From IMG/VR virus record IMGVR_UViG_3300043470_002422: a stretch of DNA of 64,000 bases; one strand, given 5' to 3'. Source of the stretch: a virus. Lineage: Duplodnaviria > Heunggongvirae > Uroviricota > Caudoviricetes. The translations under genes were made by a program, and so were the position numbers. Below are positions 925-48,141 of the stretch, piece after piece (the stretch's first letter is position 1; each line of letters starts with the position of its first letter). The notes beneath the pieces were generated by a model. It ran no database searches. It was not told the DNA's origin and saw nothing but the letters and a program-made list of their open reading frames with translations.

Positions 925-940
925 GAACGTATATTCTAAT
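925..940 (+). promoter_or_regulatory. Class A upstream motif (gAACGTATATTCTAAT) 3 nt before the ATG
   Basis: One of at least 23 near-identical copies of GACCGTATATTCTAAT, each directly upstream of a start codon. Confidence 0.6.
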
Positions 941-943
941 AAT

Positions 944-1282
944 ATGATTAAAAAATTAATACAAACCCTAAAGAGCTACAGCTTCTTTGACTACTTGCTC
1001 TTCCTCTTGGTCTTCTCAGGTCTAATTTTATCCTACTCGGCATTCCGTGAAGGCGACATCGGCAGGGGATTTGATAAGTTGACCATCGCCATCCTATTTG
1101 CGAACATGTTCTTAGCCGGCAGAATGCAAGGACAATCACAATCTCTAATTGAGGATTACCGAACCTTATCCGATTTGAAGTCCGAAATCATCGACGACCA
1201 GGAAAAAGAAATTGAAGCCTTACAGCAAGAGAACGCAAAACTAAAATCAAAACCCTCATTCACCGAAGGTTTGGAGGACTAA
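944..1282 (+). CDS. hypothetical membrane-anchored coiled-coil protein
   Basis: ATG at 944 follows the class A motif, so the TTG at 923 in the ORF track is probably not the real start. N-terminal hydrophobic helix and a C-terminal heptad-like, E/K-rich segment. Confidence 0.55.
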   Translation: MIKKLIQTLKSYSFFDYLLFLLVFSGLILSYSAFREGDIGRGFDKLTIAILFANMFLAGRMQGQSQSLIEDYRTLSDLKSEIIDDQEKEIEALQQENAKLKSKPSFTEGLED

Positions 1283-1339
1283 AAAAATTAAACTAAAACT
1301 ACGACTAAAGGGGAACTCAAAAGGTTCCTCTTTTGCTGC

Positions 1340-1355
1340 GACCGTATATTCTAAT
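1340..1355 (+). promoter_or_regulatory. Class A motif GACCGTATATTCTAAT immediately 5' of ATG 1356
   Basis: Exact consensus copy. Confidence 0.6.
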
Positions 1356-1748
1356 ATGACAGACCAGGAAATTTTCGACCTAGCCAAAGACCTAGATACT
1401 ATTGGCCACCAACAGAAGGAAATCATCAGGTTTATCTTCTTAGAAAAAAGACAATCTCAAGATGATTGGTTAGATTTTATGCGCCACTTCTCAGGTAAGA
1501 GGTTAATCTCTTTGAGCCACAAATCTGTCTACTCCTCCTTTGCACATTGGTCTCCTGAAGACGAAACCGGATGGGCAGAGAGATACTATAAGGGCAGAAC
1601 TTTAGAAGGACCTTGGGCAGCAGTACTAGAGGAAATCCAAACCATCAAAGACACCTTTCCCCATCTAAAATTTATCATCAGAGAAACGGACGAACATATT
1701 TCTTATCATCGAATAGACGATATTCGTTGTCAAATTTGGACTTTGTAA
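1356..1748 (+). CDS. hypothetical protein
   Basis: ORF immediately preceded by the class A motif. Confidence 0.55.
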   Translation: MTDQEIFDLAKDLDTIGHQQKEIIRFIFLEKRQSQDDWLDFMRHFSGKRLISLSHKSVYSSFAHWSPEDETGWAERYYKGRTLEGPWAAVLEEIQTIKDTFPHLKFIIRETDEHISYHRIDDIRCQIWTL

Positions 1749-1781
1749 CTAACACGACCGTATATTCTATCACACAACACC

Positions 1782-2027
1782 ATGAAAAAAATCTTAGTCA
1801 TCGCAATCACAGCAATCGCATTCCTAACATCTTGCACAGACAACGCCAGAGCCCGCAAGTTTGGAGGAACAGAAACCATTGAAATCCCAGCAGGAAGAAT
1901 CCTAGTCAACTGCACCTGGAAAGAATCGGACCTTTGGATTTTAACCAAAGACACAGCTACCGGCGAAATGTTCTTCAATGAGAAGTCTAGCTTTGGTTTA
2001 ATGGAAGGGGAAATCAACTTCAAGTAA
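1782..2027 (+). CDS. small putative lipoprotein
   Basis: Class A motif at 1756-1770. N-terminus MKKILVIAITAIAFLTSC has a signal peptide and a lipobox-like LTSC. Confidence 0.55.
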   Translation: MKKILVIAITAIAFLTSCTDNARARKFGGTETIEIPAGRILVNCTWKESDLWILTKDTATGEMFFNEKSSFGLMEGEINFK

Positions 2028-2060
2028 GACCGTATATTCCCATACATAACAACCAACCAC

Positions 2061-2381
2061 ATGAGAAAATTACTTATCGCATTCCGCCTTTTCAATTCCA
2101 CCTACGGACCACAAGGCAATCCAAAATCTTTATTCGTTAATCTAAAAGAGGACAACACCCTAGGCTACACCTTCATCGGAGGATGGCAGAACTCAGGAAC
2201 TGGCTTTGCCATTTCAAATCTCCAACTGAAGGAGTCCCTACCACTGGGAGCCAGAAACTTTAAAACCGTCGAAGCTCTCCAGAAGAAAATCGCGGCAATT
2301 CTAGCCACAGGCTGCGGCTCAAACGAAATCAAGACTTTCGAAATTCTAAACGACCTTAACACCATATCTTCAACCAAATAA
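2061..2381 (+). CDS. hypothetical protein
   Basis: Class A motif variant at 2028-2040. Confidence 0.5.
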   Translation: MRKLLIAFRLFNSTYGPQGNPKSLFVNLKEDNTLGYTFIGGWQNSGTGFAISNLQLKESLPLGARNFKTVEALQKKIAAILATGCGSNEIKTFEILNDLNTISSTK

Positions 2382-2389
2382 CAACCACA

Positions 2390-2551
2390 ATGAACAAACC
2401 AACAATGAACAAAGCCCAGCTCCAAGCCAGAATCGTAGAAGGAGCAAGAGAGATGATGAAAGACATGAAAAGACAAGGCCAAAGCCTAACCTTCATGGAA
2501 TGCAAAATGGAAATGGCAAAAGTTTTAAAGGAGAACTTCATCATCATCTAA
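2390..2551 (+). CDS. small hypothetical protein (53 aa)
   Basis: ATG-to-TAA ORF filling the gap between neighbouring genes, below the ORF-track size cutoff. MNKPTMNKAQLQARIVEGAREMMKDMKRQGQSLTFMECKMEMAKVLKENFIII. Confidence 0.3.
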   Translation: MNKPTMNKAQLQARIVEGAREMMKDMKRQGQSLTFMECKMEMAKVLKENFIII

Positions 2552-2552
2552 T

Positions 2553-2717
2553 ATGTCTTTATCACTAATCATCTGGTACATCTTCTGCTTCTTCTACGGA
2601 AACAGAGTTGCGGACTACTTCCTCTCAGACAAACCTAAGAACAAACCAAGAACCATTCTCTTTCTTGTTCTGACCGGAGTCTTCTTCGGAGGGCTAATCT
2701 CACTGTTCTTAAATTAG
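2553..2717 (+). CDS. small two-TM membrane protein (54 aa)
   Basis: ATG 2553 to TAG 2717. Hydrophobic segments IIWYIFCFFY and ILFLVLTGVFFGGLISLF. The TAG stop abuts the class A motif at 2717-2732 and is in frame with the next gene. Confidence 0.35.
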   Translation: MSLSLIIWYIFCFFYGNRVADYFLSDKPKNKPRTILFLVLTGVFFGGLISLFLN

Positions 2718-2732
2718 ACCGTATCTTCTAAC

Positions 2733-3173
2733 ATGAACAGCAACACACCACAAATCATCAACACGGAGAAAATCTACGAAGTGGATTTCATCCAAGGCAG
2801 AAAGGGTCTCTACAGAGCAGTAATAAAAGTCCAAGCAGGCTTCATGACAGTAGTGGACGACATCGGAATCGAGAACAACTGGGGAAGACAAGATTGGAAC
2901 AAAGCCATTGATGTCTTCAGAAACTTCAAGAAGGGAGCTCTCCAAACCATCCAGTTCAAAGCAGAAGGTTCTACCCACTGGACTACCGTCTTCGCCAAAA
3001 AAGGCACCAAGATAGTTCTAATGGACACCCAACTCTTCTTAGACATGGAAGTTGGAGACATCAACCAGAACTGGACCAACACCAACCTCTATAGCCAGAA
3101 GAACTACCAAGCAGCAGGAGCTAAGACTTGGGCAGACAAAGCATTCGTCCTTAACCACCCTAAAGCAGCCTAA
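2733..3173 (+). CDS. hypothetical protein
   Basis: Class A variant GACCGTATCTTCTAAC directly upstream. Confidence 0.55.
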   Translation: MNSNTPQIINTEKIYEVDFIQGRKGLYRAVIKVQAGFMTVVDDIGIENNWGRQDWNKAIDVFRNFKKGALQTIQFKAEGSTHWTTVFAKKGTKIVLMDTQLFLDMEVGDINQNWTNTNLYSQKNYQAAGAKTWADKAFVLNHPKAA

Positions 3174-3175
3174 CC

Positions 3176-3388
3176 ATGATAGAACTTCTAGGCTACCTAG
3201 CAATGACCCTCACAATGCTCTCCTTTGCCTTCTCAGACATGAGAACGCTTAGGGGAGTAAATGTATTGGCTTGTTTACTCTGGATTGTCTACGGGCTTCT
3301 TATGAAGTCAAACCCAATCATCTTCACAAACGTGGCGATAGCTTCGGTTCACATCATCTGGTTCATTAGAAACCGCCGCAAATCATAA
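3176..3388 (+). CDS. small three-TM membrane protein
   Basis: 70 aa with three hydrophobic helices. No assignable family. Confidence 0.45.
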   Translation: MIELLGYLAMTLTMLSFAFSDMRTLRGVNVLACLLWIVYGLLMKSNPIIFTNVAIASVHIIWFIRNRRKS

Positions 3389-3418
3389 CCGTATCTTCTA
3401 ACACAACAACACAGCCAA

Positions 3419-3754
3419 ATGATATTCTCAAACACTCAAATCAAAACAAAGACCATCCTAGTTCGCTTCTACTTCTACTCAGACACAGAAAGAGGTTACG
3501 GAGATGCAGGAACAGCCAAATACTTTAAAATGAAACTTGAAGACTTCTCCATGGTGGAGAACTCCAACTACTCAAGAGGCAAGTACTACACTTACAGACT
3601 CACCGATGAAGCCCACGAGAAAATCCAGAAAGTCTTAGGCAAAAGCTGGGGATATGGAATTGGCTATGAAATGAGAACCGGAAAAGAAAGACAGCTGGAG
3701 ATAATTAAGTTGAGAGCTAAATTGGAAGCTGCAGAAGTAGTAGAAGAAATCTAA
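3419..3754 (+). CDS. hypothetical protein
   Basis: Class A variant at 3387-3402. Confidence 0.5.
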   Translation: MIFSNTQIKTKTILVRFYFYSDTERGYGDAGTAKYFKMKLEDFSMVENSNYSRGKYYTYRLTDEAHEKIQKVLGKSWGYGIGYEMRTGKERQLEIIKLRAKLEAAEVVEEI

Positions 3755-3768
3755 CCGTATATTCTAAT

Positions 3769-3933
3769 ATGAACGAAAAAGAATTTTCCGCCCAAGACAT
3801 GATTGATTTCGCTAGATGGTTTGCAGAAGACGTTGACCAAAAAGAACTTGAAGCTTTCCGAGAAGAGCAGAAGAGAAAAGAAGGAGCTGAGTACCAGAGA
3901 TATTTGGAGTTAAAAGCTAAGTACGAAAAGTAA
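3769..3933 (+). CDS. small hypothetical protein (54 aa)
   Basis: Not in the ORF track because it is under 60 aa. The consensus class A motif at 3753-3768 is immediately followed by ATG 3769, and the ORF ends at TAA 3933. Confidence 0.5.
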   Translation: MNEKEFSAQDMIDFARWFAEDVDQKELEAFREEQKRKEGAEYQRYLELKAKYEK

Positions 3934-3941
3934 ATTCCAGT

Positions 3942-4217
3942 ATGACAACAACACACAAACTCAGAAAGGGAAAATACACCCTCCACAACTACTTCAGAGG
4001 ACAATCAGTTCCTCTACCAATCGAAATCGAATCAGTCACCAAAGGGGGAATCGAATACTCTTCAGACTACAACCTAGTAAACAAAGCAGACCAAAATCCG
4101 GTCTTCAAAGGAACTCCACAGGAGGAACTAGGCTATGACCCATTCTCTTCCGACTTCACCATGGACGAGATAGAGAAGATAGAAGGCAGAAACATTTACC
4201 TAAAGACAAGAGTTTAA
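3942..4217 (+). CDS. hypothetical protein
   Basis: ORF only. Confidence 0.45.
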   Translation: MTTTHKLRKGKYTLHNYFRGQSVPLPIEIESVTKGGIEYSSDYNLVNKADQNPVFKGTPQEELGYDPFSSDFTMDEIEKIEGRNIYLKTRV

Positions 4218-4218
4218 C

Positions 4219-4452
4219 ATGAGCAATAAAAAGCAAACCGCAGTAGACTTCCTGGTCGAACAGCTGCTAAAGAAAAGTGATATCCAGTACATCAATGGTT
4301 TTGAAGCTTTAGTCGAACAAGCCAAAGCAATGGAGGAAAATCAGCACCAAATAACTTTTGATATGGGCTACGAAGAGCATATTGTTGAAACCTGGGGAGA
4401 AGAAGACCCTAAAGGATTTAAAGACTATTTTACCGAGACCTATAAGAGCTAA
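4219..4452 (+). CDS. hypothetical protein
   Basis: ORF only, tightly packed after the previous stop. Confidence 0.45.
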   Translation: MSNKKQTAVDFLVEQLLKKSDIQYINGFEALVEQAKAMEENQHQITFDMGYEEHIVETWGEEDPKGFKDYFTETYKS

Positions 4453-4467
4453 CCCGTATATTCTAAT

Positions 4468-4785
4468 ATGAACAAAGAATTTGTCCCTTACGAAGAAGCA
4501 TTAGCCTTAAAAGAATTAGGGTTTGATGAACCTTGTTTTGGTTATTATGAACCTAATAAAGAGTTTGAGTACATAAATTGGGAAACATTCAAAGATTTTC
4601 CATATCTTGCAAAAAATAGTGAATGGCAAGATTTATGTGGAGCACCACTCTACCAACAAGCATTCAGATGGTTATACCAAAAATTAGATATTGAAAAGGG
4701 GGTAATGCCTTTAGATATTGAAGCTCAACAAATGTTACTAAAAGAATTAATACTAAAAGAATTAATTCAAACTCTAAAGAAGTAA
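4468..4785 (+). CDS. hypothetical protein
   Basis: Class A motif at 4451-4467. Confidence 0.55.
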   Translation: MNKEFVPYEEALALKELGFDEPCFGYYEPNKEFEYINWETFKDFPYLAKNSEWQDLCGAPLYQQAFRWLYQKLDIEKGVMPLDIEAQQMLLKELILKELIQTLKK

Positions 4786-4811
4786 CTTCATAATCGACCG
4801 TATATTCTAAT

Positions 4812-5126
4812 ATGAACAACCAAACACCAACTCAAGACACTTACATGGGAAGATCAGTTACCAAGAGAGTAACCATCCCAGCCCAGGAAGGCGACTTCCA
4901 AACCTACCGCATGGCGGAGGACATCCTCGAAGGCCAAGGTCATCGCATCGGCAGCATGTGTTCACCTGAGCCAACCGGCTTTGCTCCAGCAGAGGAGTTC
5001 GAGTACATCGCAAAGATGAGAAACATCTCTCCATCTGAGAGACAACTACTTCACGGGGTCATAGCCAGAAAAGGCGGGGACTTCAGAAACGGCGACCTTG
5101 AAATTATTTACTTCCAAACCAAATAA
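4812..5126 (+). CDS. hypothetical protein
   Basis: Class A motif at 4796-4811. Confidence 0.55.
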   Translation: MNNQTPTQDTYMGRSVTKRVTIPAQEGDFQTYRMAEDILEGQGHRIGSMCSPEPTGFAPAEEFEYIAKMRNISPSERQLLHGVIARKGGDFRNGDLEIIYFQTK

Positions 5127-5135
5127 TTTAAGACC

Positions 5136-5393
5136 ATGAGCAACTCAATTTTAAAAGTCATCTTAGGGGTAACCATCTTCTTCTTCATCTTAGTCGTCTT
5201 CACAGCCTGCGAAAAGCAAGCTCAATCCTCAACCATCAAAGGCCACAACATCGAAGTCGAATTCCTCTTCGAGCAAGACTCAGTCAAGGTCTACAGATTC
5301 TATGATGGTTCATACCACTACTTCACCACCAGAGGCGAGACCATGAGCACAAAGACTACAGGCAAAACCTCCCACCAGGAGAACATCAAATAA
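5136..5393 (+). CDS. small putative lipoprotein / membrane protein
   Basis: N-terminal signal or TM segment ending in FTAC (lipobox-like). Confidence 0.45.
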   Translation: MSNSILKVILGVTIFFFILVVFTACEKQAQSSTIKGHNIEVEFLFEQDSVKVYRFYDGSYHYFTTRGETMSTKTTGKTSHQENIK

Positions 5394-5394
5394 A

Positions 5395-5680
5395 GACATT
5401 GTGTGTGTTGTTAAACTTAGGTCCCTCCGGGGACCTTTGTTGTGGAGTAGGGGCTAGTAAAAGGACCCCTCCAGGGTCTGTGTGTAATAGAGAGGGCCCT
5501 CCAGGGAGTGGAGGGGGACCTAATTAGGGGTCCTATTAGGGGGTTAAGGGCCCCTTATATAAGGGGTACCTTGGAGGGGGTCCTGTAACGCTGAGGGGAC
5601 CCCTACAGGGGAGATTCAAGGGGGGGCCTCACGTAGGGGGTCTGTTGGTGGCAGGTCCAGACGCTCAGCGAAGTCCAATT
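5395..5680. repeat. GC-rich G-tract and palindrome island inside an AT-rich genome
   Basis: More than 15 runs of GGGG or longer. Inverted repeats of the AGGTCCC...GGGACCT type and a perfect 16-bp palindrome CCCCTTATATAAGGGG centred on the class B core. Confidence 0.6.
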
Positions 5681-5773
5681 GGATTTCCAGGTAGTCCACT
5701 TGGGATTCTTCATAGCTTTCCTAGTCTTTCCTGGTCTTTCCTGGTTCTCCACCCTAATCTCCTTCCACAGTAG

Positions 5774-5784
5774 AATATATAGGC
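5774..5784 (+). promoter_or_regulatory. Class B motif (GAATATATAGG) 2 nt before ATG 5787
   Basis: Same GGATATATAAG-type element as upstream of the other MKH-leader genes. Confidence 0.5.
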
Positions 5785-5786
5785 AC

Positions 5787-6587
5787 ATGAAGCACATCCT
5801 AGCCTTTCCCCTATTTGAATCCGTGTCCTTGACTCCAGACCAGAAAGTCTTTCTGGAAATGTGTATGGAGAACACCAATCTCAATTCCAAGTTTGTCCAA
5901 GACCCTGCAACAGGCAAGGTGACAACTCTGGGCAAATTCGATGCCCAGTACTATTACGAATCAAGACCAAACTCCGATAAGCAGAAGATCAGGGATCTGT
6001 TTAACTCCATTCCCTTTGGAGTAGCAGAAGGGAACTTCTCAGTCAGAGGGATGTACTTGGACGCTATGGTCAATTTCCCATCTTCAGTAGAAGGAACTTT
6101 GTCCCTCAGCAGGAACTCCCTGCTAACCTTGGAGGGAATACCTAAGATGATCTATAAGGATTTGAGTCTTGAAGACAATCACCTCATCTCTCTAGAAGGC
6201 ATGGAAGAGACAGAAGTTAGAGGAACCATCTGGTTTGCAGACAACTGGATCAGAGGTCTCTGGTTGAGAGAAGATCTGACCAGAGCCAAAGCCATTGGCA
6301 CTTGGGTTCCAATCTATCTGGACATCCTCTCAGGAGAGACCTCGTTCAGTGGGATTCCAAATCCCAACGAGCAGGAAGAGGCAAAGGCATTCATCATGGA
6401 GAAGAAGACGACAAAGGCTCAGATGGAAGAAGCCATCAGGGTGGCACCAGCAGAGATGACTGTGGCTCTCAGCAGAAAGCGGACTATGCCTCAGGAGATG
6501 CAAGATCTACTTCCGACACTGAATGTTCCTGAAGGATTCTGGGATGCTCCTGATCTCATGGGGGATCTGGAGGGAGTAGGACTGTAG
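5787..6587 (+). CDS. CTS-like-leader family protein with LRR-like 22-aa repeats and a C-terminal DLEGVGL
   Basis: Real start is ATG 5787 (MKHILAFPLFES); the ORF-track start at 5679 is an alternative upstream start. Internal repeats of the form N-x-L-x-x-L-E-G-x-P. Ends GDLEGVGL. Confidence 0.6.
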   Translation: MKHILAFPLFESVSLTPDQKVFLEMCMENTNLNSKFVQDPATGKVTTLGKFDAQYYYESRPNSDKQKIRDLFNSIPFGVAEGNFSVRGMYLDAMVNFPSSVEGTLSLSRNSLLTLEGIPKMIYKDLSLEDNHLISLEGMEETEVRGTIWFADNWIRGLWLREDLTRAKAIGTWVPIYLDILSGETSFSGIPNPNEQEEAKAFIMEKKTTKAQMEEAIRVAPAEMTVALSRKRTMPQEMQDLLPTLNVPEGFWDAPDLMGDLEGVGL

Positions 6588-6605
6588 ATGTTTCCGTACC
6601 AGTGA

Positions 6606-6618
6606 GGGATATATAAAC
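6606..6618 (+). promoter_or_regulatory. Class B motif GGGATATATAAAC
   Basis: Upstream of the ferritin-like gene. Confidence 0.5.
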
Positions 6619-6634
6619 CAAAATTTAACACCCA

Positions 6635-7246
6635 ATGGCAACACTAAAAGAATTCTTAACTATGAGAGAGAACATGGAAATCCAAGCAATTGAGGTTCCT
6701 GGTCTTGAACTGCCTGCTCAGACTTCCGAGCCTGTAGTAGTAGGATCAGGAGTGCCTAAACCAAAGACTCTGTCATCAGAGATCATCTCGGCTTTAGAAG
6801 CAAGACTCAAAGATGAATACACAGCTCACTACACATACCGTAACGCAGCCAACTGGTGCAAGAACATGAACTATAAGGCAGCAGCAGCCTACTTCGAAGG
6901 CGAAGCAGCAGAGGAGTTAGAACACGCAGCTGGACTTCAGGATTACATGACCCAGTGGAACTGTTTACCACAGATCCCACCTGTAACTGTGCCTAACGAG
7001 TTTACCTCTCTTGTGCATATCATAGGACATGCCTACACTATCGAGTATGATCTGCTTCAGAAGTACTCTGCACTTCAAAGGGCCTTTGATGCTGCTCATC
7101 CTGCTACATTCAATTTCATTCAGAAGTATGTAGACATTCAGAATGAGTCTGTTGCTAGCTACTCTGATCTCCTAAATGCTCTTGAGCTCATTAACATTGA
7201 TTCCAAGCTAGACATTCTAATCTTCGAAGGAAGATATTTCGGATAA
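6635..7246 (+). CDS. ferritin-like protein with an N-terminal extension
   Basis: Di-iron ferritin signature spacing EYTAHYTY...AAEELEHAAGLQDY...TIEYDL...IQNESV. Confidence 0.6.
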   Translation: MATLKEFLTMRENMEIQAIEVPGLELPAQTSEPVVVGSGVPKPKTLSSEIISALEARLKDEYTAHYTYRNAANWCKNMNYKAAAAYFEGEAAEELEHAAGLQDYMTQWNCLPQIPPVTVPNEFTSLVHIIGHAYTIEYDLLQKYSALQRAFDAAHPATFNFIQKYVDIQNESVASYSDLLNALELINIDSKLDILIFEGRYFG

Positions 7247-7268
7247 TCTTATAACACAAACACAACAC

Positions 7269-7300
7269 GAAGGTGTCTCTACTAGGGGCACCTTCTTTGT
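7269..7300 (+). terminator. Hairpin (GAAGGTG ... CACCTTC) followed by a T-rich tract
   Basis: 7-bp stem with a 13-nt loop, then TTTGTGTGT. Confidence 0.35.
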
Positions 7301-7458
7301 GTGTCCTAGTCTTATATGTAGAATGGATTGGGGTGCCGCCGGGAGGGGATGTAAACCCAAAATTTGGGCCTGAGCTTGGGAGGCCCTAGGGGGATCGGGA
7401 GCAAAACTCAGGGGCAGGGCCCAGCGCGCTTTAAAGCACATGATTGACATTGCCTGCA

Positions 7459-7470
7459 GGGATATATAAG
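7459..7470 (+). promoter_or_regulatory. Class B motif GGGATATATAAG 3 nt before ATG 7474
   Basis: Consensus copy. Confidence 0.55.
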
Positions 7471-7473
7471 CGA

Positions 7474-8301
7474 ATGAAGCACTTGCAGACATATAGCATC
7501 TTTGAATCCAAGACGGTACTGACTGAAGACCAGGAGACGTTCTTGTCTCTCTTCGTCGAACCTCTTGAGAATTCGAAGGGGATGCCTGGGACTTGGTCCG
7601 TCAACCCAAAAACCGGCTTGGTTGACGTCAATGGAAACTTTGAGTGCCCACAAAGGGGATTGAAGGACTTTAAGGGAATCTCCTTTGGCCATGTGAGTGG
7701 AGCCTTTGACTGCGATCGAAACGAACTTGTCAGCTTGAAGGGTGCACCTCAGTTGGTGAGAGATTTCTCCTGCGATCGAAATGACCTTGTCAGTCTCGAG
7801 GGAGCACCTCAGTTTGTCAGGGGAGGCTTCTACTGCAACACCAATAGGCTGAAGAACTTAAAAGGTGGCCCGGTAGAAGTGGGAGGGGATTTCTCCTGCG
7901 TTGGCAATGACCTCAAGACCTTGGAGGGAAGTCCAAGAACGGTGGGAGGGGATTTCTACTGCTATTCAAATTCAACTTCTCTTATCTCTTTAGCAGGGGC
8001 TCCAGAAACAATCGGTGGGACTTTTCACTGCGACTGGTTTGAACTTTCCAACTGGGGGGTTCCTGGCCTGCTGGAGACCATCAAGAAGGTCAACCCCAAA
8101 GCTCAGAAGATGATTTTGGACCTCCTGACTCCTGAGAAAATACAGCAGACGATTGACAGAGAGCCTGAGAAGATGGCTGTTGAATTAAAGGGGGTTTGGA
8201 AGACCCTGAAGGCGGATCCAAAATATGCAGGGCTAAAATTTCCAGAAGGAATCCAAGGGGATGCAGAGATGCTGTCAGACCTGGACGACGTTGGTCTTTA
8301 A
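7474..8301 (+). CDS. CTS-like-leader family protein with six LRR-like 22-aa repeats and a C-terminal DLDDVGL
   Basis: ATG 7474 (MKHLQTYSIFES). Repeats of the form C-D-R-N-x-L-V-S-L-x-G-A-P-Q-x-V. Ends LSDLDDVGL. Confidence 0.65.
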   Translation: MKHLQTYSIFESKTVLTEDQETFLSLFVEPLENSKGMPGTWSVNPKTGLVDVNGNFECPQRGLKDFKGISFGHVSGAFDCDRNELVSLKGAPQLVRDFSCDRNDLVSLEGAPQFVRGGFYCNTNRLKNLKGGPVEVGGDFSCVGNDLKTLEGSPRTVGGDFYCYSNSTSLISLAGAPETIGGTFHCDWFELSNWGVPGLLETIKKVNPKAQKMILDLLTPEKIQQTIDREPEKMAVELKGVWKTLKADPKYAGLKFPEGIQGDAEMLSDLDDVGL

Positions 8302-8312
8302 GGATATATAAG
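8301..8312 (+). promoter_or_regulatory. Class B motif AGGATATATAAG
   Basis: Immediately 5' of ATG 8315. Confidence 0.55.
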
Positions 8313-8314
8313 AC

Positions 8315-9199
8315 ATGAAGCACCTACAAACTTATCGTCGATTTGAATCTCAGCATGCCCTGAATGAAGGGGATGAATATCGCAAGATGAACATGGACTA
8401 CCTCTTGAACAAATTTACTCGAGTTCCAAACAACGGGAAGTTGTACAACCCTTCGGAGGAAGACTTTGCAGATCTGCCTTGGTATCAAGCCTTGAAGGGG
8501 GCATTTCCAGATTTCAAACTGGAGAGGGTCAGAAAGAAAGGGAATGGCTACTCTTGGTTCTTCCCTGGGCCAAAACCCAAACCTCAGGCTTTCTACGAGG
8601 TTTTCAGAGAAGGTGACAGAGACTCCCCCTCTGAAGAGCCGGCCAAGATTGTATTCAACAACGATTTAATGACTTCATCTCAGACGTTCACAATTTTACT
8701 CAACGATAAAGAGTCTTGGAATGAGCTCTTTAAGCTGCTCTATTTTGCCCAGTTTGAAGGAAAAATATCAGGACCTACTTGGAGGGGATTAAAACACATT
8801 ATGGAACTCTTCTCTTCGGATTTGGAGTCTTTTTACAAGACCGGAAATCTGGGAATAGTTGGAGTGAAAAAGGATTGCAACCCTTATGGAGGACACTACG
8901 AGTCCTCAGTTGATTTTCTGAAGAACCTTCCTTATGGCATCTTTGATGATCTGAAGGCTGGATTTGTCAAGAAGATGAAAGAAGATCCTGCGGAGATTCA
9001 GTATGCAATTTCTCAGTGTCAACTTCCGAAAGGAACAGCAGAGACCGTATTTGGCACAGCTAGACTCTACCCAGAAAATGAGGTGCTGAACTTCTACAAT
9101 CTGATGAAGCAAGAAGGTTATGTTCCACCGGCCGGATTTGACGAAGAAACTGGGGAAATTTCAGATATACACAAATCTCTAGGGGACATCGGTCTGTAG
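8315..9199 (+). CDS. CTS-like-leader family protein, C-terminal LGDIGL
   Basis: MKHLQTYRRFES leader. Ends SLGDIGL at a TAG stop. Confidence 0.6.
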   Translation: MKHLQTYRRFESQHALNEGDEYRKMNMDYLLNKFTRVPNNGKLYNPSEEDFADLPWYQALKGAFPDFKLERVRKKGNGYSWFFPGPKPKPQAFYEVFREGDRDSPSEEPAKIVFNNDLMTSSQTFTILLNDKESWNELFKLLYFAQFEGKISGPTWRGLKHIMELFSSDLESFYKTGNLGIVGVKKDCNPYGGHYESSVDFLKNLPYGIFDDLKAGFVKKMKEDPAEIQYAISQCQLPKGTAETVFGTARLYPENEVLNFYNLMKQEGYVPPAGFDEETGEISDIHKSLGDIGL

Positions 9200-9210
9200 C
9201 ATATAAGGAC

Positions 9211-9252
9211 ATGAAGCACATAAAACTATTTGAAGACTACTCAGACGAAGAT
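9211..9252 (+). repeat. 42-nt exact direct repeat (second copy at 9786-9827)
   Basis: atgaagcacataaaactatttgaagactactcagacgaaga is identical at both positions. Confidence 0.8.
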
Positions 9253-9789
9253 TTAGCAGGACTAATGTCCGATCTAGATGGGGTTGGTCTTATGAATAAA
9301 GTAATTGTTAGCTTCGGGGAAAAAATTCCAATTCCTCAAGAGGTGACCCATCCATCTTGGTGGGCAGAGCCTTGGGGGAAATTTGCCATCGTGGAGATTT
9401 ACACTCCAGAGAAAGGTCCAAAGGCAGAACAACTGGCTTTCGAAAAAATTAAAAAGGGAGACTTCACTCAAGATTTATCGAAATTAGATACTGATGCTTA
9501 CAAGAACAGAATTTCCAACATTCTGAAGTTTTTTAGTTCGGAGAGAATTCAGAAGGAAGCTCAAGAATCTCGGGACGTGGTGGAATTCAAAACTCGAATT
9601 CACGAAAAGTCGGGACAGATCCTATTTAACGAATGGGAAGGTATAGTCGAGAAATATCTCGAAGGAAAATCTGAAGATTATGCGAAAGAATTTTTCAACA
9701 CGCTTTGGAAATCCACCCCCAAATCAGCCAAGCAAGAGATTGCCGGATCCACAGCAATAAAAGTTTTGCAAACCGAAGTAAATAAATGA
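9211..9789 (+). CDS. CTS-like-leader family protein, N-terminal MKHIKLFEDYSDE...SDLDGVGL
   Basis: Leader plus the DLxxVGL motif within the first 27 aa. Paralog of the next gene. Confidence 0.6.
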   Translation: MKHIKLFEDYSDEDLAGLMSDLDGVGLMNKVIVSFGEKIPIPQEVTHPSWWAEPWGKFAIVEIYTPEKGPKAEQLAFEKIKKGDFTQDLSKLDTDAYKNRISNILKFFSSERIQKEAQESRDVVEFKTRIHEKSGQILFNEWEGIVEKYLEGKSEDYAKEFFNTLWKSTPKSAKQEIAGSTAIKVLQTEVNK

Positions 9790-10358
9790 AGCACATAAAA
9801 CTATTTGAAGACTACTCAGACGAAGAAATCAAGTCCCTCATGGGGGACCTTGCCGAGGTTGGTCTGGGAAAGAAATGGAGGGTTGTTGGATCAATATCCA
9901 CAGTTACCCCAGAAGTCAACTACTATAGAAACTGGGAAGAACAAGTCCATGAGGTTTTCATTGTGGAAGTTGCTGCAGATTCAGAGAAGACGGCATATTT
10001 AGAGGCCTTTGAAAAACTTAAATCTGGAGACTTCACTCAGAAACTTTCAGATGAAATGGAAAAATGGAATAACGTTCTGAATAAAATTCCAGAGGTGGGA
10101 AAAATTCTTTCCAAAGACAACATCATCAAAGCTGCTAATGGAAAGGCAAATCAGCAGCCAATGGAGAGGAAGGACATTACAGGAAATCCAATCTATGACG
10201 GAAAAATTAGATGGGTCATGACTGTTGATCTTGTGGGTCCGACTGAAGAGGCAATTCTAAATAAGATAAAGTCCATGACAGGAGGTGTTGTTAGCCCAGA
10301 GATGGAGGAATTTGTTAACGAAAATGTGGGTTGGAACTTAAGAGCAGAAGAAATATGA
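9786..10358 (+). CDS. CTS-like-leader family protein, tandem paralog
   Basis: MKHIKLFEDYSDEEIKSLMGDLAEVGL. Shares AFEKxKxGDFTQ with the upstream gene. The ATGA start and stop overlap. Confidence 0.6.
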   Translation: MKHIKLFEDYSDEEIKSLMGDLAEVGLGKKWRVVGSISTVTPEVNYYRNWEEQVHEVFIVEVAADSEKTAYLEAFEKLKSGDFTQKLSDEMEKWNNVLNKIPEVGKILSKDNIIKAANGKANQQPMERKDITGNPIYDGKIRWVMTVDLVGPTEEAILNKIKSMTGGVVSPEMEEFVNENVGWNLRAEEI

Positions 10359-10426: not shown

Positions 10427-10442
10427 TACCGTATCTTTCTAT
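10427..10442 (+). promoter_or_regulatory. Class A variant TACCGTATCTTTCTAT
   Basis: Upstream of ATG 10451. Confidence 0.45.
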
Positions 10443-10450
10443 AACATAAT

Positions 10451-11110
10451 ATGGAAGATCAAGAATTGTGGGATCTCATGGGAGACCTTGAAGACGTTGG
10501 GCTTGGAGATAGTATCACCAAGGCTTATTCGATTACGGGATTTTATGAAGATGGGGAAGAGCATCTCGACAACGACATTTTGACTGCTAATATCTTGAAT
10601 GCTTTTATTGAAGTCAATGAATCAGATGGGGCTGATTTATTTCTTGACAAACTAGACGAGCCAAAATCTCCTCATATGGACCCTTTAGTTTCCTCCTGGT
10701 TTGGTGACAACTACCTTATAATCAAAGGAAACTTCACCAGGGTTAGATCAGTCGAAGAAAGGCTAAGAAAAGAGTTTGTAATCGAAAAAGAGGTTGAGCT
10801 TAAAGACTATAAAAAATTAGAGCTTAGTGGAAGTTCCGGATCTTACGGTGCGACTGGAATTTCAGGAACTCCTGGAATTTCAGGAACGACTGGATATGCT
10901 GGAACTACCACGGTTGTATATTCTTCCCCAGGATTGAGCGGGTCTTGGTCCACCTCAGGAGTAACGGTTTCTGTCTCAACTCCAAAGATGATCCAAACTT
11001 CTGTCAAGATCGAAATGCCGATCAGGGAGCTAAAAGATCCACCAGAAGATGAGGTTGAGACCTACGGACATCCTCTTTGGGAAAAGATTAAAGGTAAACT
11101 AGGATTCTAA
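10451..11110 (+). CDS. protein with an N-terminal GDLEDVGL motif and a Gly/Ser/Thr collagen-like low-complexity stretch
   Basis: MEDQELWDLMGDLEDVGLGD, then GATGISGTPGISGTTGYAGTT. Confidence 0.55.
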   Translation: MEDQELWDLMGDLEDVGLGDSITKAYSITGFYEDGEEHLDNDILTANILNAFIEVNESDGADLFLDKLDEPKSPHMDPLVSSWFGDNYLIIKGNFTRVRSVEERLRKEFVIEKEVELKDYKKLELSGSSGSYGATGISGTPGISGTTGYAGTTTVVYSSPGLSGSWSTSGVTVSVSTPKMIQTSVKIEMPIRELKDPPEDEVETYGHPLWEKIKGKLGF

Positions 11111-11125
11111 ACCGTATATTCTAAT
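11111..11125 (+). promoter_or_regulatory. Class A motif ACCGTATATTCTAAT overlapping the start region
   Basis: Consensus copy. Confidence 0.55.
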
Positions 11126-11651
11126 GAATATGACAACTCAAGAATTTATAAAATTTTGCAAACATCAACACGATGTAGAATGCAACCAAAAGTATGGAAA
11201 GATCCATCCTTATTCCTTTCACCTTGATCTAGTAGCTACCCAAGCTAAAAAGTTCGAAGAACTCCTAGGTGATTTTGATCTAGACCTAGATAAAACAATT
11301 ATGGCATCATGCTACGGTCACGATCTGATCGAAGATGCCAGAGTTACCTACAACGATATCAAAGAAATGGTGGGAGAGAAGATCGCAGATATTATCTACT
11401 GTTGCACCGAAGAGAAAGGTAAAAACAGAGATCAAAGACACAGTGAGAAGTATTTTGCCGAACTGAAAGAAAACGAACTTGCAATCTTCGTTAAACTTTG
11501 CGACATCACTGCCAATGTTAAATATTCTCTTTTAACAGACTCTGGAATGTTTAAAAAATACAGAAAAGAATTTCCTAAAGTTAAAGAACATCTTTACGTA
11601 GAGAAATTCAAACCCCTGTTTGACCACCTAGAATCAATCCTTTCAATCTAA
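11124..11651 (+). CDS. HD-domain phosphohydrolase, small dNTPase-like
   Basis: H...HD...D spacing with FHLDLV and CYGHDLIEDARV. 175 aa. Confidence 0.55.
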   Translation: MNMTTQEFIKFCKHQHDVECNQKYGKIHPYSFHLDLVATQAKKFEELLGDFDLDLDKTIMASCYGHDLIEDARVTYNDIKEMVGEKIADIIYCCTEEKGKNRDQRHSEKYFAELKENELAIFVKLCDITANVKYSLLTDSGMFKKYRKEFPKVKEHLYVEKFKPLFDHLESILSI

Positions 11652-12027: not shown

Positions 12028-12069
12028 CTCTGACCGTATATTCAATAAAATAACAATTAAAAAAATCAA

Positions 12070-36299: not shown

Positions 36300-36314
36300 A
36301 AGAAAAAAAACTTA

Positions 36315-38308: not shown

Positions 38309-38321
38309 GGATATATAGGGG
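38309..38321 (+). promoter_or_regulatory. Class B motif GGATATATAGGGG
   Basis: Upstream of ATG 38341. Confidence 0.5.
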
Positions 38322-38340
38322 ATAAAAATTACTCCCTTAA

Positions 38341-39460: not shown

Positions 39461-39991
39461 ATGAAGTATCTAGAACTATTCGAAGCATTTAATCCCTCCG
39501 GGGATAAATTGGGATTTGGAAAACAAATTCAATCCCATATACAACAATTAGTTGGGAAGAATTTCGGAACCCCTTATGTGGTTACTTCAGCAGAGGTAAC
39601 AAGAGCTGAAAGTGAAGGGTTTGCAGATCAAAGCGGACAAGGGGATTTAGTTCTAACTTTCAAAAAAGAATCTCCGGATGAGCTGGACGAACTTATTTCT
39701 GATTTAACCTCTGTAGGATTATCAGAAGAAAGGAAGATAGAATTTGGGTGGGACGTTATTGCTACGATGGAAACAGAATCTTCTCCAGACGGAGACCCTC
39801 TTTGGGATTTAACCTATAACATCTATACAGACTCCCCCGTAGTTTTTCTACAGTTCCCTGAAATATTCAGGGGTGAAGTAAAACACCTCTACGACATGTC
39901 TTATGGAGTTGGCAGCGTAATCAAAGGGTTAATAGAGAAAACAATAAATCGTTTAGTATACGAATCTAAAATGGGTAATAAGAACAAGTAA
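39461..39991 (+). CDS. CTS-like-leader family protein (MKYLELFEAF) with an internal DLTSVGL
   Basis: Leader and motif as in the 9211 and 9786 paralogs. Confidence 0.55.
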   Translation: MKYLELFEAFNPSGDKLGFGKQIQSHIQQLVGKNFGTPYVVTSAEVTRAESEGFADQSGQGDLVLTFKKESPDELDELISDLTSVGLSEERKIEFGWDVIATMETESSPDGDPLWDLTYNIYTDSPVVFLQFPEIFRGEVKHLYDMSYGVGSVIKGLIEKTINRLVYESKMGNKNK

Positions 39992-43873: not shown

Positions 43874-43905
43874 TTTGGTTTTATTGATTTTTTAATTTTT
43901 AATTT

Positions 43906-43917
43906 GGGATATATATC
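43906..43917. promoter_or_regulatory. Palindromic class B motif GGGATATATATC in a divergent intergenic region (bidirectional promoter candidate)
   Basis: Reads as the class B motif on both strands, between minus gene 42320-43873 and plus gene 43936. Confidence 0.5.
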
Positions 43918-43935
43918 AACAAACAAAAACGAATT

Positions 43936-46175: not shown

Positions 46176-46587
46176 CCAATTTTTTAATTTTAAAAATTAA
46201 AGATTCCATGGCTCCCGGATATTTTCCGTTGTCGCTAGATCTCTCTGGATATTCGGTTAAATAAGGATCTTCTAATTTCACTTTCTTACCTTTATGATTA
46301 GAAACGGTTTTATCCTCGTAGTAAAGAAGATCTAAATCCATTAGGGATCCAAGCATTTTATCAACTTCAAAATCTTCTTCTTCTAAACCGGTTAGATTTA
46401 TAAACATTTCTATGGCATATTTCGGATCTATCCAACCCATCCCAGAAGTAACTATATCAATGATATTATCTGTAGCGGATTTAGGATCCATAGATTCGTT
46501 CAAAAACTCACCATATTCTTTAATATTGATTCCCATTTTTATAAAAGTTTTTTTGCTTCTTCGAAATCTTCTGCAGTTAAATTCCAT
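46162..46587 (-). CDS. hypothetical protein
   Basis: Overlaps its neighbours by a few codons. Confidence 0.5.
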   Translation of the reverse strand: MEFNCRRFRRSKKTFIKMGINIKEYGEFLNESMDPKSATDNIIDIVTSGMGWIDPKYAIEMFINLTGLEEEDFEVDKMLGSLMDLDLLYYEDKTVSNHKGKKVKLEDPYLTEYPERSSDNGKYPGAMESLIFKIKKLDEFH

Positions 46588-47285
46588 CCAGCTATTTTTT
46601 CTTTGATGAATTTCTTAGCTTCTGGATATGTTGCGTCAGTGTTATCTTTTAAATATGCTAACAATTTTTCTCTAATCGCCGGATGAATTCCTTCAGATTC
46701 TAAAATTTCTTCCGGAAACTCAAATTCTAAGCTTTCGGTTGTCAATTTAATTTCTGATAAAATCTTTTTCAATTCCTCCTGGACTTTTATTTTATCTCTT
46801 CTAGATGCTCCTCCTTGACCGATGAAAACATTAAATTCTTCGATCATATCATCGGTTAATTCCTCATCCAGTTCAACTAATGGTTTTTCTGAATTTTCCC
46901 AATCGTCTGTTCCAAATCCTATTTCCATCACCGGAACGTCGTTAGCAGCAGCTTCTATTCCCATTGAATCTGGATCTTGGTATTCTTGAGCATCTTCGTC
47001 CCAAATCTTGTAATTTTCCTCGAACTCCGGAGAGGTTGAATCAAAATAGAAAATGTAGTTTTTACCTGTTTTTTGATCTTTTAATGTTGCAAACTCAAGA
47101 AAATCTGTAGATGTTAATTTTAAGTTGTGCTTGGAGGGATTGATTCCTCTAAGATCCTCAACTTCTCTATAATCATCTTCTCTGTACCCGGGAGGGAGGT
47201 TTCCGGATGGAGAGGTAGTTACACCAAATAAGTCTGCCTCGTTATTTTTTAGATGAAATTCATCGAAAGATAAAATTTTTGCCAT
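46539..47285 (-). CDS. hypothetical acidic protein
   Basis: Class B motif on the minus strand (47302-47314) upstream of its ATG. Confidence 0.5.
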   Translation of the reverse strand: MAKILSFDEFHLKNNEADLFGVTTSPSGNLPPGYREDDYREVEDLRGINPSKHNLKLTSTDFLEFATLKDQKTGKNYIFYFDSTSPEFEENYKIWDEDAQEYQDPDSMGIEAAANDVPVMEIGFGTDDWENSEKPLVELDEELTDDMIEEFNVFIGQGGASRRDKIKVQEELKKILSEIKLTTESLEFEFPEEILESEGIHPAIREKLLAYLKDNTDATYPEAKKFIKEKIAGWNLTAEDFEEAKKLL

Positions 47286-47301
47286 TGATTTAAATTAATT
47301 T

Positions 47302-47314
47302 GTTTATATATCCC
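47302..47314 (-). promoter_or_regulatory. Class B motif (GGGATATATAAAC on the minus strand)
   Basis: Reverse complement of GTTTATATATCCC. Confidence 0.5.
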
Positions 47315-47454
47315 AGTCACATCAAAATCTTTTGTTTGAAATATTTCAATTATTTTTTAATTTTAAGAAACTTTTCTATAAAAACCATCTAAAAGAATTA
47401 CTTATATTCCCTGGAGAAGTATCTATTATTATCTAGGAGCCGCCGTTAAGGTCT

Positions 47455-47487
47455 CAACAAAAAACCCAAACTCGAAAGTCTGGGTTT
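47455..47487 (-). terminator. Rho-independent terminator on the minus strand
   Basis: Minus strand reads AAACCCAGACT-TTCG-AGTTTGGGTTT followed by TTTTTTG. Confidence 0.6.
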
Positions 47488-47505
47488 ACATAAGGTCTAT
47501 TCTTC

Positions 47506-48081
47506 TTATTTTAAACTTAGAAGGTATTTAGTTTGATCTATCAGACTCAAAATTTCCTGAATTATATTAAAGATTTCCGGATCTTTATTTTCATCGAATG
47601 CAGAGATACATTCTTCTCTGTAACAAACATCTAAATGAGCTATGAATCTAGGAAGTCCGTCTGGGGATTCTGGAGAATCGTAGTTATCTAATTTTAATGT
47701 TCTTTCCGAATCATTAAAAACGGGTCTACCATATTTTCCCATGATTGATTCTATCAAAGTATCTGAGATTTCAATAAACTCTTCAAAGAAATTATCTAAA
47801 GCTTTGTGCTCGGAATATGAATTGGTCTGCCAATGCAAAAGTTTTGCTTGAGTCATATTTTGAAGAACCCTACTTGCAACCTGGCTTGTTTTAGAGCTAG
47901 GGGTTTGGGTCTTATCTGGAGCTGCACTAGGAGTTTTGGGAATACTAATAGGTTTTAGAGGGATAATTTCCGCATCAGTCTCTACCTCCGGACCTTTGGG
48001 TTGTTCTGGGTTATATTTTCTTTTACCTGCAGGTTCTATAATTTCACCAAAGGCACTTAGATTTAATACGTTGTCCGCCAT
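47506..48081 (-). CDS. hypothetical protein
   Basis: Likely ATG start at 48081 (MADNVLNL); the ORF track extends to a TTG at 48111. Class B-like GATATATAAC sits upstream on the minus strand. Confidence 0.5.
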   Translation of the reverse strand: MADNVLNLSAFGEIIEPAGKRKYNPEQPKGPEVETDAEIIPLKPISIPKTPSAAPDKTQTPSSKTSQVASRVLQNMTQAKLLHWQTNSYSEHKALDNFFEEFIEISDTLIESIMGKYGRPVFNDSERTLKLDNYDSPESPDGLPRFIAHLDVCYREECISAFDENKDPEIFNIIQEILSLIDQTKYLLSLK

Positions 48082-48127
48082 ATATTTTTTTTCTTTTTTG
48101 TTATATATCAAGTACGACCGAAATTTT

Positions 48128-48141
48128 TTTAAAAATGCCGT
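48128..48141 (+). promoter_or_regulatory. Class A variant GCCGTATATTAAAT in a divergent promoter region
   Basis: Upstream of ATG 48155. The minus-strand class B-like motif at 48101-48113 is adjacent. Confidence 0.45.

Follow-up and report, generated by a model that had tools for sequence, protein, structure and literature searches.

Which signals direct transcription in a large uncultured phage whose start codons are preceded, again and again and at almost no distance, by one of two short conserved motifs? The question is raised by a 64,000-nt stretch of DNA from a virus of the class Caudoviricetes (IMG/VR record IMGVR_UViG_3300043470_002422), which we call the window; it is gene-dense, with about 90 genes, 6.8% non-coding DNA, and no Shine–Dalgarno sequences. 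Both motifs, class A and class B, are probably promoters consisting of a -10 region only, most likely read by the host core RNA polymerase together with a sigma-family factor; judging from sequence, we assign this reading a probability of roughly 0.75.

Class A has the consensus tRACCGTATATT(C/T)wAwt, and in a logo of 39 copies the information is confined to about 17 bp. The 16-mer GACCGTATATTCTAAT, with up to 3 mismatches allowed, yields 17 matches in the window; shuffled sequence would be expected to give 0.65, and none of 100 shuffles attains 17. The core CGTAT[AC][TA][TC] defines 24 window sites, 24/24 on the plus strand, each co-oriented with the next gene, and 22 of them intergenic, i.e., within the small non-coding fraction. 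Near-identical strain contigs from freshwater metagenomes add 10 kb on either side of the window (L015 reaches upstream and L011 downstream), and the 8.6 kb directly upstream contain a further 15 copies. A preliminary description of this DNA had counted at least 23 class A copies near gene starts; our 24 sites comprise those at its coordinates and a few more. Its observations that tail variants (TAAAT, CAATA, and TATAA) cluster at 12-36 kb, and that class A precedes the genes of the NAD island (PRPP synthetase at 21351, NAMPT at 27572) and a tRNA-like gene (34248-34331), are likewise borne out. In the following list, all sites are on the plus strand, the predicted +1 is a conserved purine recognised from the sequence, and the leader runs from this purine to the ATG.

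925-941, plus strand: class A GAACGTATATTCTAAT; predicted +1 A941; ATG 944, 3-nt leader; terminator hairpin 890-915 just upstream
1340-1356, plus strand: class A consensus; predicted +1 coincides with the A of ATG 1356 (leaderless); hairpin and T-run at about 1311-1334 upstream
1756-1772, plus strand: class A; predicted +1 A1772; ATG 1782, 10-nt leader
2028-2044, plus strand: class A; predicted +1 A2044; ATG 2061, 17-nt leader; strain L016 lacks the gene that follows
2717-2733, plus strand: class A, TATCTT variant; predicted leaderless, ATG 2733
3387-3403, plus strand: class A, TATCTT variant; ATG 3419, 16-nt leader; the 1-kb two-gene insertion of L016 has a junction here
3753-3769, plus strand: class A; predicted leaderless, ATG 3769
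4452-4468, plus strand: class A; predicted leaderless, ATG 4468
4796-4812, plus strand: class A consensus; predicted leaderless, ATG 4812
10427-10443, plus strand: class A variant TACCGTATCTT; ATG 10451, 8-nt leader
11110-11126, plus strand: class A; predicted +1 G11126; implied start ATG 11130 rather than 11124
12032-12048, plus strand: class A, CAATA tail; ATG 12070, 22-nt leader; the gene matches a virion-structural-protein PHROG
13544-13560, plus strand: class A; ATG 13577, 17-nt leader; terminator 13498-13524 upstream
20957-20973, plus strand: class A, TATAA tail; ATG 20974, 1-nt leader
21325-21341, plus strand: class A; ATG 21351 (PRPP synthetase), 10-nt leader
24459-24475, plus strand: class A within the 3'-terminal part of gene 23635-24516; adenylosuccinate synthetase starts 41 nt further on, at 24516
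26891-26907, plus strand: class A, TAAAT tail; ATG 26918, 11-nt leader
27352-27368, plus strand: weak class A variant CAACGTATAATT; ATG 27370, 2-nt leader
27542-27558, plus strand: class A; ATG 27572 (NAMPT), 14-nt leader
29134-29150, plus strand: class A, TATATC variant; abuts palindromic hairpin 29112-29136; ATG 29177 (SPFH protein)
31725-31741, plus strand: class A; ATG 31753, 12-nt leader
34218-34234, plus strand: class A; predicted +1 G34234; the tRNA-like element (non-coding target) begins 14 nt downstream
34248-34331, plus strand: tRNA-like cloverleaf, downstream of class A 34218, its predicted promoter
36284-36300, plus strand: class A, TATAAT variant; ATG 36315, 15-nt leader
48136-48152, plus strand: class A variant TGCCGTATATT; ATG 48155, 3-nt leader; forms a divergent pair with class B 48108 on the minus strand

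The purine (35 A, 4 G) lies exactly 6 nt past TATATT in 39/39 copies, independently of the ATG; the distance from motif to ATG varies from 0 to 41 nt, while that to the purine is constant. Counted from the purine, the leader is 0 nt in 11/38 cases; in 5 it measures 1-4 nt and in most of the remainder 8-27 nt, and it is never negative save for the alternative upstream ATG 11124, which we reject in favour of ATG 11130 because the purine G11126 lies after it. Due to this fixed position, and because ATGs pile up on the purine and never before it, we regard the purine as transcription start site-like. TATATT is a 5/6 match to the TATAAT hexamer, with the predicted start 6 nt after it. No -35 or -33 element is seen upstream (less than 0.2 bit at every position upstream of -4 in the 39-copy logo), nor is the TG dinucleotide of an extended -10 found one base upstream of the hexamer, as RACCG abuts TATATT directly; the motif has no hairpin or dyad symmetry. 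Such geometry would be that of a -10-only promoter, often yielding a predicted leaderless mRNA.

The surroundings of the sites are consistent with this. Strong intrinsic terminators lie directly upstream of motifs at 890-915, 7269-7295, 13498-13524, and, on the minus strand, 47462-47487; for class A, a hairpin with a T-run directly upstream is seen at only four copies (925, 1340, 13544, and 29134). Genes translationally coupled to the upstream gene lack class A, and since tightly coupled genes do without it, the motif is not needed for translation. The tRNA-like element is a non-coding target, and in a related IMG/VR contig class A copies immediately follow tRNA 3' ends within an array of 11 tRNAs. 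The exact 18-mer ACCGTATATTCTAATATG has 3 matches in 596 Gb of reference cellular genomes, which is chance level, with none in Bacteroidota; it is found in 24 contigs from metagenomes and in several from IMG/VR. Many of these have no nucleotide similarity to the window and yet bear 2-5 further same-strand class A copies of the same purine geometry. When the literature was searched for the motif strings, nothing but primer or probe matches of an unrelated kind came up. The proposal of the preliminary description that the motifs are promoters of leaderless or short-leader mRNAs thus finds support in the fixed purine, the pile-up of ATGs, the order of terminator then motif, the non-coding target, and the conservation on unrelated contigs, all of which point to such promoters.

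A difference in gene content between strains also has class A at its borders. Compared with the window, strain L016 has a 1-kb two-gene insertion (L016 8646-9664) exactly between two AACCGTATCTT copies, and each inserted gene carries its own class A copy. In the upstream strain contig (L015 2803-2923, about 5.8 kb before the window begins), two class A copies are separated by 120 nt that contain no open reading frame (ORF); a small non-coding RNA may be made from the first.

A Bacteroidota host is indicated by a 1697-aa protein with about ten PKD domains plus the type IX secretion sorting domain CHU_C (Pfam; window 15814-20907, plus strand), together with the lack of Shine–Dalgarno sequences. 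The canonical sigma-A promoter of this phylum has TTG at -33 and the -7 box TAnnTTTG at -12 to -5 (PMC9723704). The pattern TTG-N17-21-TAnnTTTG occurs in the window 0 times on the plus strand, which carries most genes, and 5 times on the minus strand, versus 6.3 in shuffles; neither this pattern nor TAnnTTTG is associated with window gene starts. A sigma-70 consensus scan of three 20-kb blocks (1-60000) also stays at chance level (42 vs. 39.5, 57 vs. 57.1, and 59 vs. 70.5). The host-type pattern is enriched in Tenacibaculum phage pT24 (19 vs. 5.8) and in class A-free relatives (7 vs. 3.0, 7 vs. 2.5, and 10 vs. 5.5), whose -7 box is typically TATATTTG, and it is also rare in class A-bearing relatives. 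In class A, the G of TTTG is seen in 0/39 copies, and the last two positions are C/T and T/A/C. Since the host-type pattern is absent from the plus strand and enriched in relatives free of class A, class A looks like this lineage's substitute for host-type promoters, with TAnnTT kept, the final G and the -33 element lost, and ACCG gained.

Class B has the core (g)gR-ATATATA-R, with 15 sites, 11 on the plus and 4 on the minus strand, plus a degenerate copy at 9199. The 12-mer GGGATATATAAG by which it had been defined proves too narrow, as its 12 matches with up to 2 mismatches do not differ significantly from the 7.6 expected (8/100 shuffles reach 12). The core itself is linked to gene starts: ATATATA, with 18 copies in the window on both strands, occurs in sense within 40 nt of the start in 12 upstream regions versus 0.43 expected, and ATATATA[AG] opens an ORF within 25 nt in 10/16 copies (6/8 in the relative L022) versus 16% for composition-matched 8-mers. 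The logo reads (g)(g)R-ATATATA-R-N3-A-A, with a conserved A at +11/+12 and nothing conserved upstream beyond the 3-nt G-rich 5' flank. The distance from the 8-mer to the start is bimodal, 3-6 nt or 18-22 nt. The TATATA-N4/5-A geometry is that of class A. All nine sites listed in the preliminary description are at the right coordinates, the one at 9199 being degenerate; six had been missed (48627, 51094, 54094 on the minus strand, 57819, 34358, and 15417). The sites are:

5775-5787, plus strand: class B gaATATATAG; ATG 5787 at the predicted +1 (MKH family)
6609-6621, plus strand: class B gggATATATAA; ATG 6635 (ferritin-like), 14-nt leader
7462-7474, plus strand: class B gggATATATAA; ATG 7474 at the predicted +1 (MKH family); terminator 7269-7295 upstream
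8304-8316, plus strand: class B aggATATATAA; ATG 8315 (MKH family)
9199-9211, plus strand: degenerate class B copy GCATATAAGG / GCATATAAGGAC; ATG 9211 (MKH family)
15417-15429, plus strand: orphan class B core in a long non-coding stretch, 385 nt before the giant PKD/type IX secretion gene
34358-34370, plus strand: class B core before ATG 34374 (PTH2-like ORF, TAG as codon 3)
38311-38323, plus strand: class B tggATATATAG; ATG 38341, 18-nt leader
43904-43921, no strand assigned: palindromic class B GGGATATATATC in a 62-bp divergent spacer; ATG 43936 (plus), 15-nt leader; possibly 43873 (minus), 31-nt leader
47299-47311, minus strand: class B gggATATATAA; start 47285, 14-nt leader; terminator 47462-47487 (minus) upstream
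48096-48108, minus strand: class B ttgATATATAA; start 48081 (DUF5856 protein), 15-nt leader
48627-48639, plus strand: class B ggaATATATAG; ATG 48655, 16-nt leader
51094-51106, plus strand: class B gtaATATATAG; ATG 51105
54082-54094, minus strand: class B aaaATATATAA; GTG start 54068, 14-nt leader
57819-57831, plus strand: class B ataATATATAA; ATG 57833, 2-nt leader

Class B had also been described as palindromic and used in both directions. This applies to a single site, 43906-43917 (GATATATATC); the others read GATATATAA/G and are not self-complementary, and the supposed bidirectional site at 48101-48141 is a class B copy on the minus strand and a class A copy on the plus strand, back to back (48096-48152).

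The class B copies at 7462, 8304, and 9199 sit at the junctions of tandem MKH paralogues. This family comprises five tandem genes within 5787-10358 and one distant copy at 39461-39991; common to the proteins are the N-terminus MK[HY][IL]..[FY]..F.(E)S and, further inside, the motif SD(E/D)(E/D)L..L..DL..VGL; two of them carry BspA-like leucine-rich repeats, and none has a Pfam or PHROGs match. Class B is kept more widely than class A, being present in the class A-free contigs L019, L021, and L022 as well as in class A-bearing ones. In distant huge-phage relatives, it stands 3-5 nt before ATGs, and genes of the MK[HY]L..F..F.ES type follow it in L019, L022, and L030; in L022 an endolysin-like gene, too, has class B before it. 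Just downstream of the window, three copies (L011 9851-9936) precede a gene for a 702-aa peptidoglycan-binding protein. Upstream, a NUMOD3 homing-endonuclease-like gene (L015 3453-4141, minus strand), the sole opposite-strand gene of the upstream early block, has class B 3 nt before its ATG; this is reminiscent of homing endonucleases of T4 that are expressed from late promoters. Most class B genes in the window have no assigned function, and the evidence for lateness comes from the lysis-type and endonuclease genes of these sister loci.

The mechanism that we favour is as follows. In class A, the TATATT hexamer would be fused to the lineage-specific RACCG extension, which would replace the -35/-33 element; in class B, the 8-bp TATA box ATATATA(A/G), often with G-rich bases before it, would play the same role as at T4 late promoters. 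Transcription would begin at the purine 5-6 nt past the hexamer. Genes being packed as stop codon, promoter, and start codon, this purine would often be the A of the ATG, so that about 30% of class A transcripts and those of the MKH-family class B genes would be leaderless; the remaining transcripts would have A-rich leaders of 1-27 nt, suiting a host phylum that makes no use of Shine–Dalgarno sites. Class A would drive blocks, all in one direction, of small genes of early type and of genes related to nucleotides, NAD, and tRNA, as well as a single tRNA-like RNA, whereas class B, on either strand, would drive the MKH paralogues and the lysis-type and endonuclease genes of the sister loci. The repeated class A copies would, in addition, serve as homology patches where gene cassettes come and go. 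Class B is probably the later class, because of the lysis-type and endonuclease genes, and it is read as late-type because its TATA box, the lack of a -35 element, and its use on either strand match T4 late promoters. The suggestion of the preliminary description, two temporal regulons that a phage sigma factor or a modified polymerase would recognise, is plausible; indirect support comes from the lack of canonical host promoters on the plus strand, from the chance-level occurrence of the exact motif in cellular genomes, and from the jumbo-phage group of the protein-level relatives, described as polymerase-less but encoding sigma factors (PMC7824862).

An indication of the factor that would read them comes from the relatives. 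No DNA-level match to phage records is found by megablast; at the protein level the relatives, all distant, are jumbo or huge phages, namely the 634-kb LR745206, Lak phages, RsoM2USA, XacN1, GAP32-type phages, and pT24. LR745206 has been placed in the Bacteroidetes-infecting Mahaphage clade (PMC7162821). Jumbo phages of group 2.2, which includes Bacteroidetes phages and has the Lak and Tenacibaculum phages among its members, are described as having no RNA polymerase of their own and as encoding sigma factors (PMC7824862); due to this affiliation, host core polymerase with phage sigma factors is most likely the arrangement here, at least for class B. Class A might be read by host sigma-A on an unusual extended -10, by an RpoD-like phage sigma factor, or, less likely, by a phage polymerase.

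These alternatives, and those in which the motifs are not promoters, differ in what they leave unexplained. Class A as an ordinary host sigma-A promoter of strong early phage flavour, like T4 early promoters and with no phage factor involved, is possible, though on balance doubtful. Early genes do require a polymerase already there at infection, and TATATTYW overlaps the first six positions of the -7 box TAnnTTTG at -12 to -5 (PMC9723704), which in the relatives is TATATTTG; however, the G of TTTG is missing in 39/39 copies together with the -33 TTG, the strongly conserved ACCG is outside the host consensus, and cellular genomes hold the exact 18-mer no more often than by chance, with no occurrence in Bacteroidota. 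The chance-level occurrence in 596 Gb and the lack of host-type promoters on the plus strand of the window are what a phage-encoded RNA polymerase, virion-delivered or early-made and of phiKZ/AR9 or N4 type, would lead one to expect, and class A, long, near-invariant, lacking a -35, and with the start purine at a fixed 5-6 nt, has the layout of AR9 early promoters (AAATATATATTAT-(6N)-G+1) and of phiKZ-type virion-polymerase promoters (PMC5312081). Nevertheless, such a polymerase is unlikely, given that the class A core is a normal TATAAT-like hexamer at a normal start distance, that no polymerase subunit is seen among the approximately 75 scanned proteins, and that, among the relatives, Lak and pT24 belong to jumbo group 2/2.2, described as having no RNA polymerase of their own (PMC7824862).

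The position of the motifs immediately before start codons, and the cassette indels bounded by class A, could also be explained if they were signals for RNA processing or translation, or primarily recombination sites. We consider this very improbable: the distance to the ATG varies over 0-41 nt at a constant purine distance, many tightly coupled genes without the motif must still be translated, class A precedes a non-coding tRNA-like gene and often follows terminators, and a motif ending at the ATG would be outside the RNA, quite apart from its lack of hairpin or dyad symmetry. As for class B, one may suspect AT-rich, TATA-like intergenic sequence, with copies inherited along with the tandem MKH paralogues and no distinct signal, since the 12-mer is not enriched, G+C across the window is 31-47% with A-rich leaders, three copies are at paralogue junctions, and a 40-kb stretch of pT24 has no such pattern. 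The frequency of ORF opening (10/16 in the window and 6/8 in L022 versus 16%), the tight bimodal spacing, the conserved G-rich 5' flank and A at +11/+12, and the presence of the motif before non-paralogous genes and in relatives without nucleotide similarity make this improbable in our view.

Several observations nonetheless weigh against the interpretation of the two classes as -10-only promoters with a host core polymerase and a sigma-family factor. The start sites, like the timing and the identity of the sigma factor, are deduced from sequence. The search for a phage sigma factor, an RNA polymerase, or a known polymerase modifier, which the preliminary description had proposed, yields none among about 75 window proteins (Pfam, PHROGs), and none among 9 proteins of a class A-bearing relative; gp55- and gp33-like proteins are not seen within the 64-kb window, nor is a sliding clamp. 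The "early" label of class A is not clean, given the match of the gene at 12070 to a virion-structural-protein PHROG. The late evidence for class B is thin, comprising the endolysin-like gene of L022, the peptidoglycan-binding gene of L011, and the homing endonuclease of L015; the copies at the MKH junctions may be inherited by descent; and the single pT24 stretch (L020) shows, besides no class A, no start-proximal class B.

A bolder version would have the lineage drop host sigma-A promoters altogether and run its whole programme on two private -10-only types with phage-supplied factors (a virion-delivered or early sigma factor or polymerase), with large-scale production of leaderless mRNAs and with class A as the recombination joint of cassettes shared among unrelated environmental phages. 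This version, taken as a whole, seems distinctly doubtful.

Compared with known systems, class B is closest to the late promoters of T4, which have an 8-bp TATA box at -10, no -35, and use on either strand, the early and middle transcripts being of one polarity (PMC2988020). T4 late promoters (TATAAATA; gp55, gp33, and sliding clamp) share with class B the 8-bp -10 TATA box, the missing -35, and the A/T-rich downstream part, and the strand use is also alike (11 plus and 4 minus for class B; one polarity, 24/24 plus, for class A). However, class B does not have the consensus TATAAATA but ATATATA(A/G) with a G-rich 5' flank, many copies are so near the ATG that the mRNA would be leaderless, and the late timing of class B is a deduction. 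The PeSL cassettes of T4-type phages resemble class A in that an early-type promoter is repeated before nearly every small gene of a hyperplastic region (PMC2839356, PMC4122927) and, like the L016 indels, have junctions exactly in the repeated promoter motif; the PeSL unit, however, is a composite of sigma-70 promoter and terminator, whereas the class A unit is a 16-17-bp predicted -10-only promoter, with only about 4-6 of the 24 copies adjoining a terminator hairpin. In Rak2/GAP32/CBB-type phages, an RpoD-like early class, a divergent -35 class, and a late ATAAATA motif have been predicted, and CBB encodes phage sigma factors (PMC5259590). Block-wise promoter classes, an early-type class among short hypothetical ORFs, and a TATA-type late motif are shared with the window, where neither class has a -35/-33 element, the consensus sequences are different, and the promoters abut start codons.

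The early promoters of phiKZ and AR9, read by the virion RNA polymerase, are similar to class A in the long, near-invariant TATATT motif, the purine about 6 nt downstream, and the lack of a -35 (PMC5312081). Class A differs by its G+C-containing 5' part ACCG and by leaders of 0-27 nt versus 26-491 nt in AR9; moreover, no multisubunit polymerase is seen among the approximately 75 window proteins, and the relatives are in the polymerase-less group (PMC7824862). With the Bacteroidota sigma-A promoter, class A shares TA-nn-TT at about -11 to -6, the host phylum, and short leaders devoid of Shine–Dalgarno sites (PMC9723704), and it differs in having ACCG and neither the terminal G nor the -33 element. 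Among host mRNAs of this phylum, only about 5% are leaderless (PMC9723704). Temporal promoter classes in large T4-related phages and promoter-bounded cassettes are thus already known; what appears to be new is the class A consensus, the lack of a -35/-33 element in either class, the apparent replacement of host-type promoters, and the systematic packing of stop codon, promoter, and ATG, from which large-scale use of leaderless mRNAs is predicted.

Almost nothing is known of the transcription signals in Bacteroidota phages, above all in uncultured large phages, and gene callers and expression tools presume Shine–Dalgarno sites or host-type promoters. With a 17-bp promoter whose transcripts begin at the ATG, gene starts could be fixed, as for ATG 11130 over 11124, and the two classes would mark transcription units and probable temporal classes in metagenomic phage genomes. 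Class A could supply orthogonal promoter parts for the genetics of Flavobacteria and Bacteroides and a sequence tag for contigs of this lineage. Promoter repeats would also drive cassette turnover outside the enterobacterial and cyanobacterial T4-like phages, and the reading factor, if phage-encoded, would be a sigma factor or polymerase of new specificity.

A weaker third set of -10-only promoters may be represented by generic [CG]TATAA[TA] hexamers, which are found 5-24 nt before starts free of class A and class B at 14791, 31173, 42325 (minus strand), 48944, 52487, and 54823; 10/56 copies in total lie within 30 nt of a start versus about 1 expected. TAGATTA was considered as a third motif and dropped, as it is not enriched and mostly represents gene ends of the form ...GAT TAA.

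The tRNA-like element at 34248-34331 scores 16.9 bits on the Rfam tRNA model, the gathering score being 29, and neither ARAGORN nor Rfam at the gathering threshold reports a non-coding RNA in the window. It has an encoded ACCA 3' end, an insertion of 9-10 nt between the acceptor and D arms, and an anticodon loop of 9 nt (CUUCUAAAC), whose inner 7 nt would yield the anticodon CUA of an amber suppressor. Directly downstream of this suppressor-like tRNA is an ORF for a PTH2-like peptidyl-tRNA hydrolase (34374-34736, plus strand; Pfam 24 bits, cutoff 23) that opens with ATG AAA TAG ATT AAC, i.e., with an in-frame TAG at codon 3; an ATG AAG TAG ATT AAC opening is kept in a 507-kb IMG/VR relative (L021 about 9575-9950). 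The TAG could be read through, or a 2-codon mini-ORF could be followed by re-initiation at ATT. Genome-wide recoding of TAG is not supported, TAG being a normal stop that ends 7/89 genes.

Other genes of the window encode PRPP synthetase, NAMPT, adenylosuccinate synthetase, MTHFR, a CCA-adding enzyme, a ClpB-like ATPase, and a glycosyltransferase island. A large glycan-biosynthesis island (window 53511-63330 and L011 3881-9607) is seen with the families Glyco_transf_7N/7C, Galactosyl_T, Glyco_transf_11, Glyco_transf_17, DUF5672, and DUF3431, more typical of eukaryotes and giant viruses, and with a 2OG-Fe(II) oxygenase, DegT aminotransferases, and epimerases. The 1697-aa PKD/CHU_C protein is presumably exported through the host's type IX secretion system; upstream of its gene is an unusually long 420-bp non-coding region (15394-15813) that holds only the orphan class B core.

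The small-gene block at 1-10000 has a higher G+C content than the rest of the window (42-47% vs. about 35%), and the coding strand of the first 6 kb is C- and A-rich, with GC skew falling to -0.11 and AT skew rising to +0.26; this suggests a module of distinct composition. Between the small genes of class A and the class B MKH block lies a 393-bp non-coding, G+C-rich block at 5394-5786 with many short hairpins and repeats (CCCTCCAGGG three times, GGGGACC..GGGGTCC units, and CTTTCCTGGT three times). The minimum of the cumulative GC skew falls here, though the flanking genes share one strand, and this block may represent clustered terminators, an origin of replication, or a landmark of the genome.

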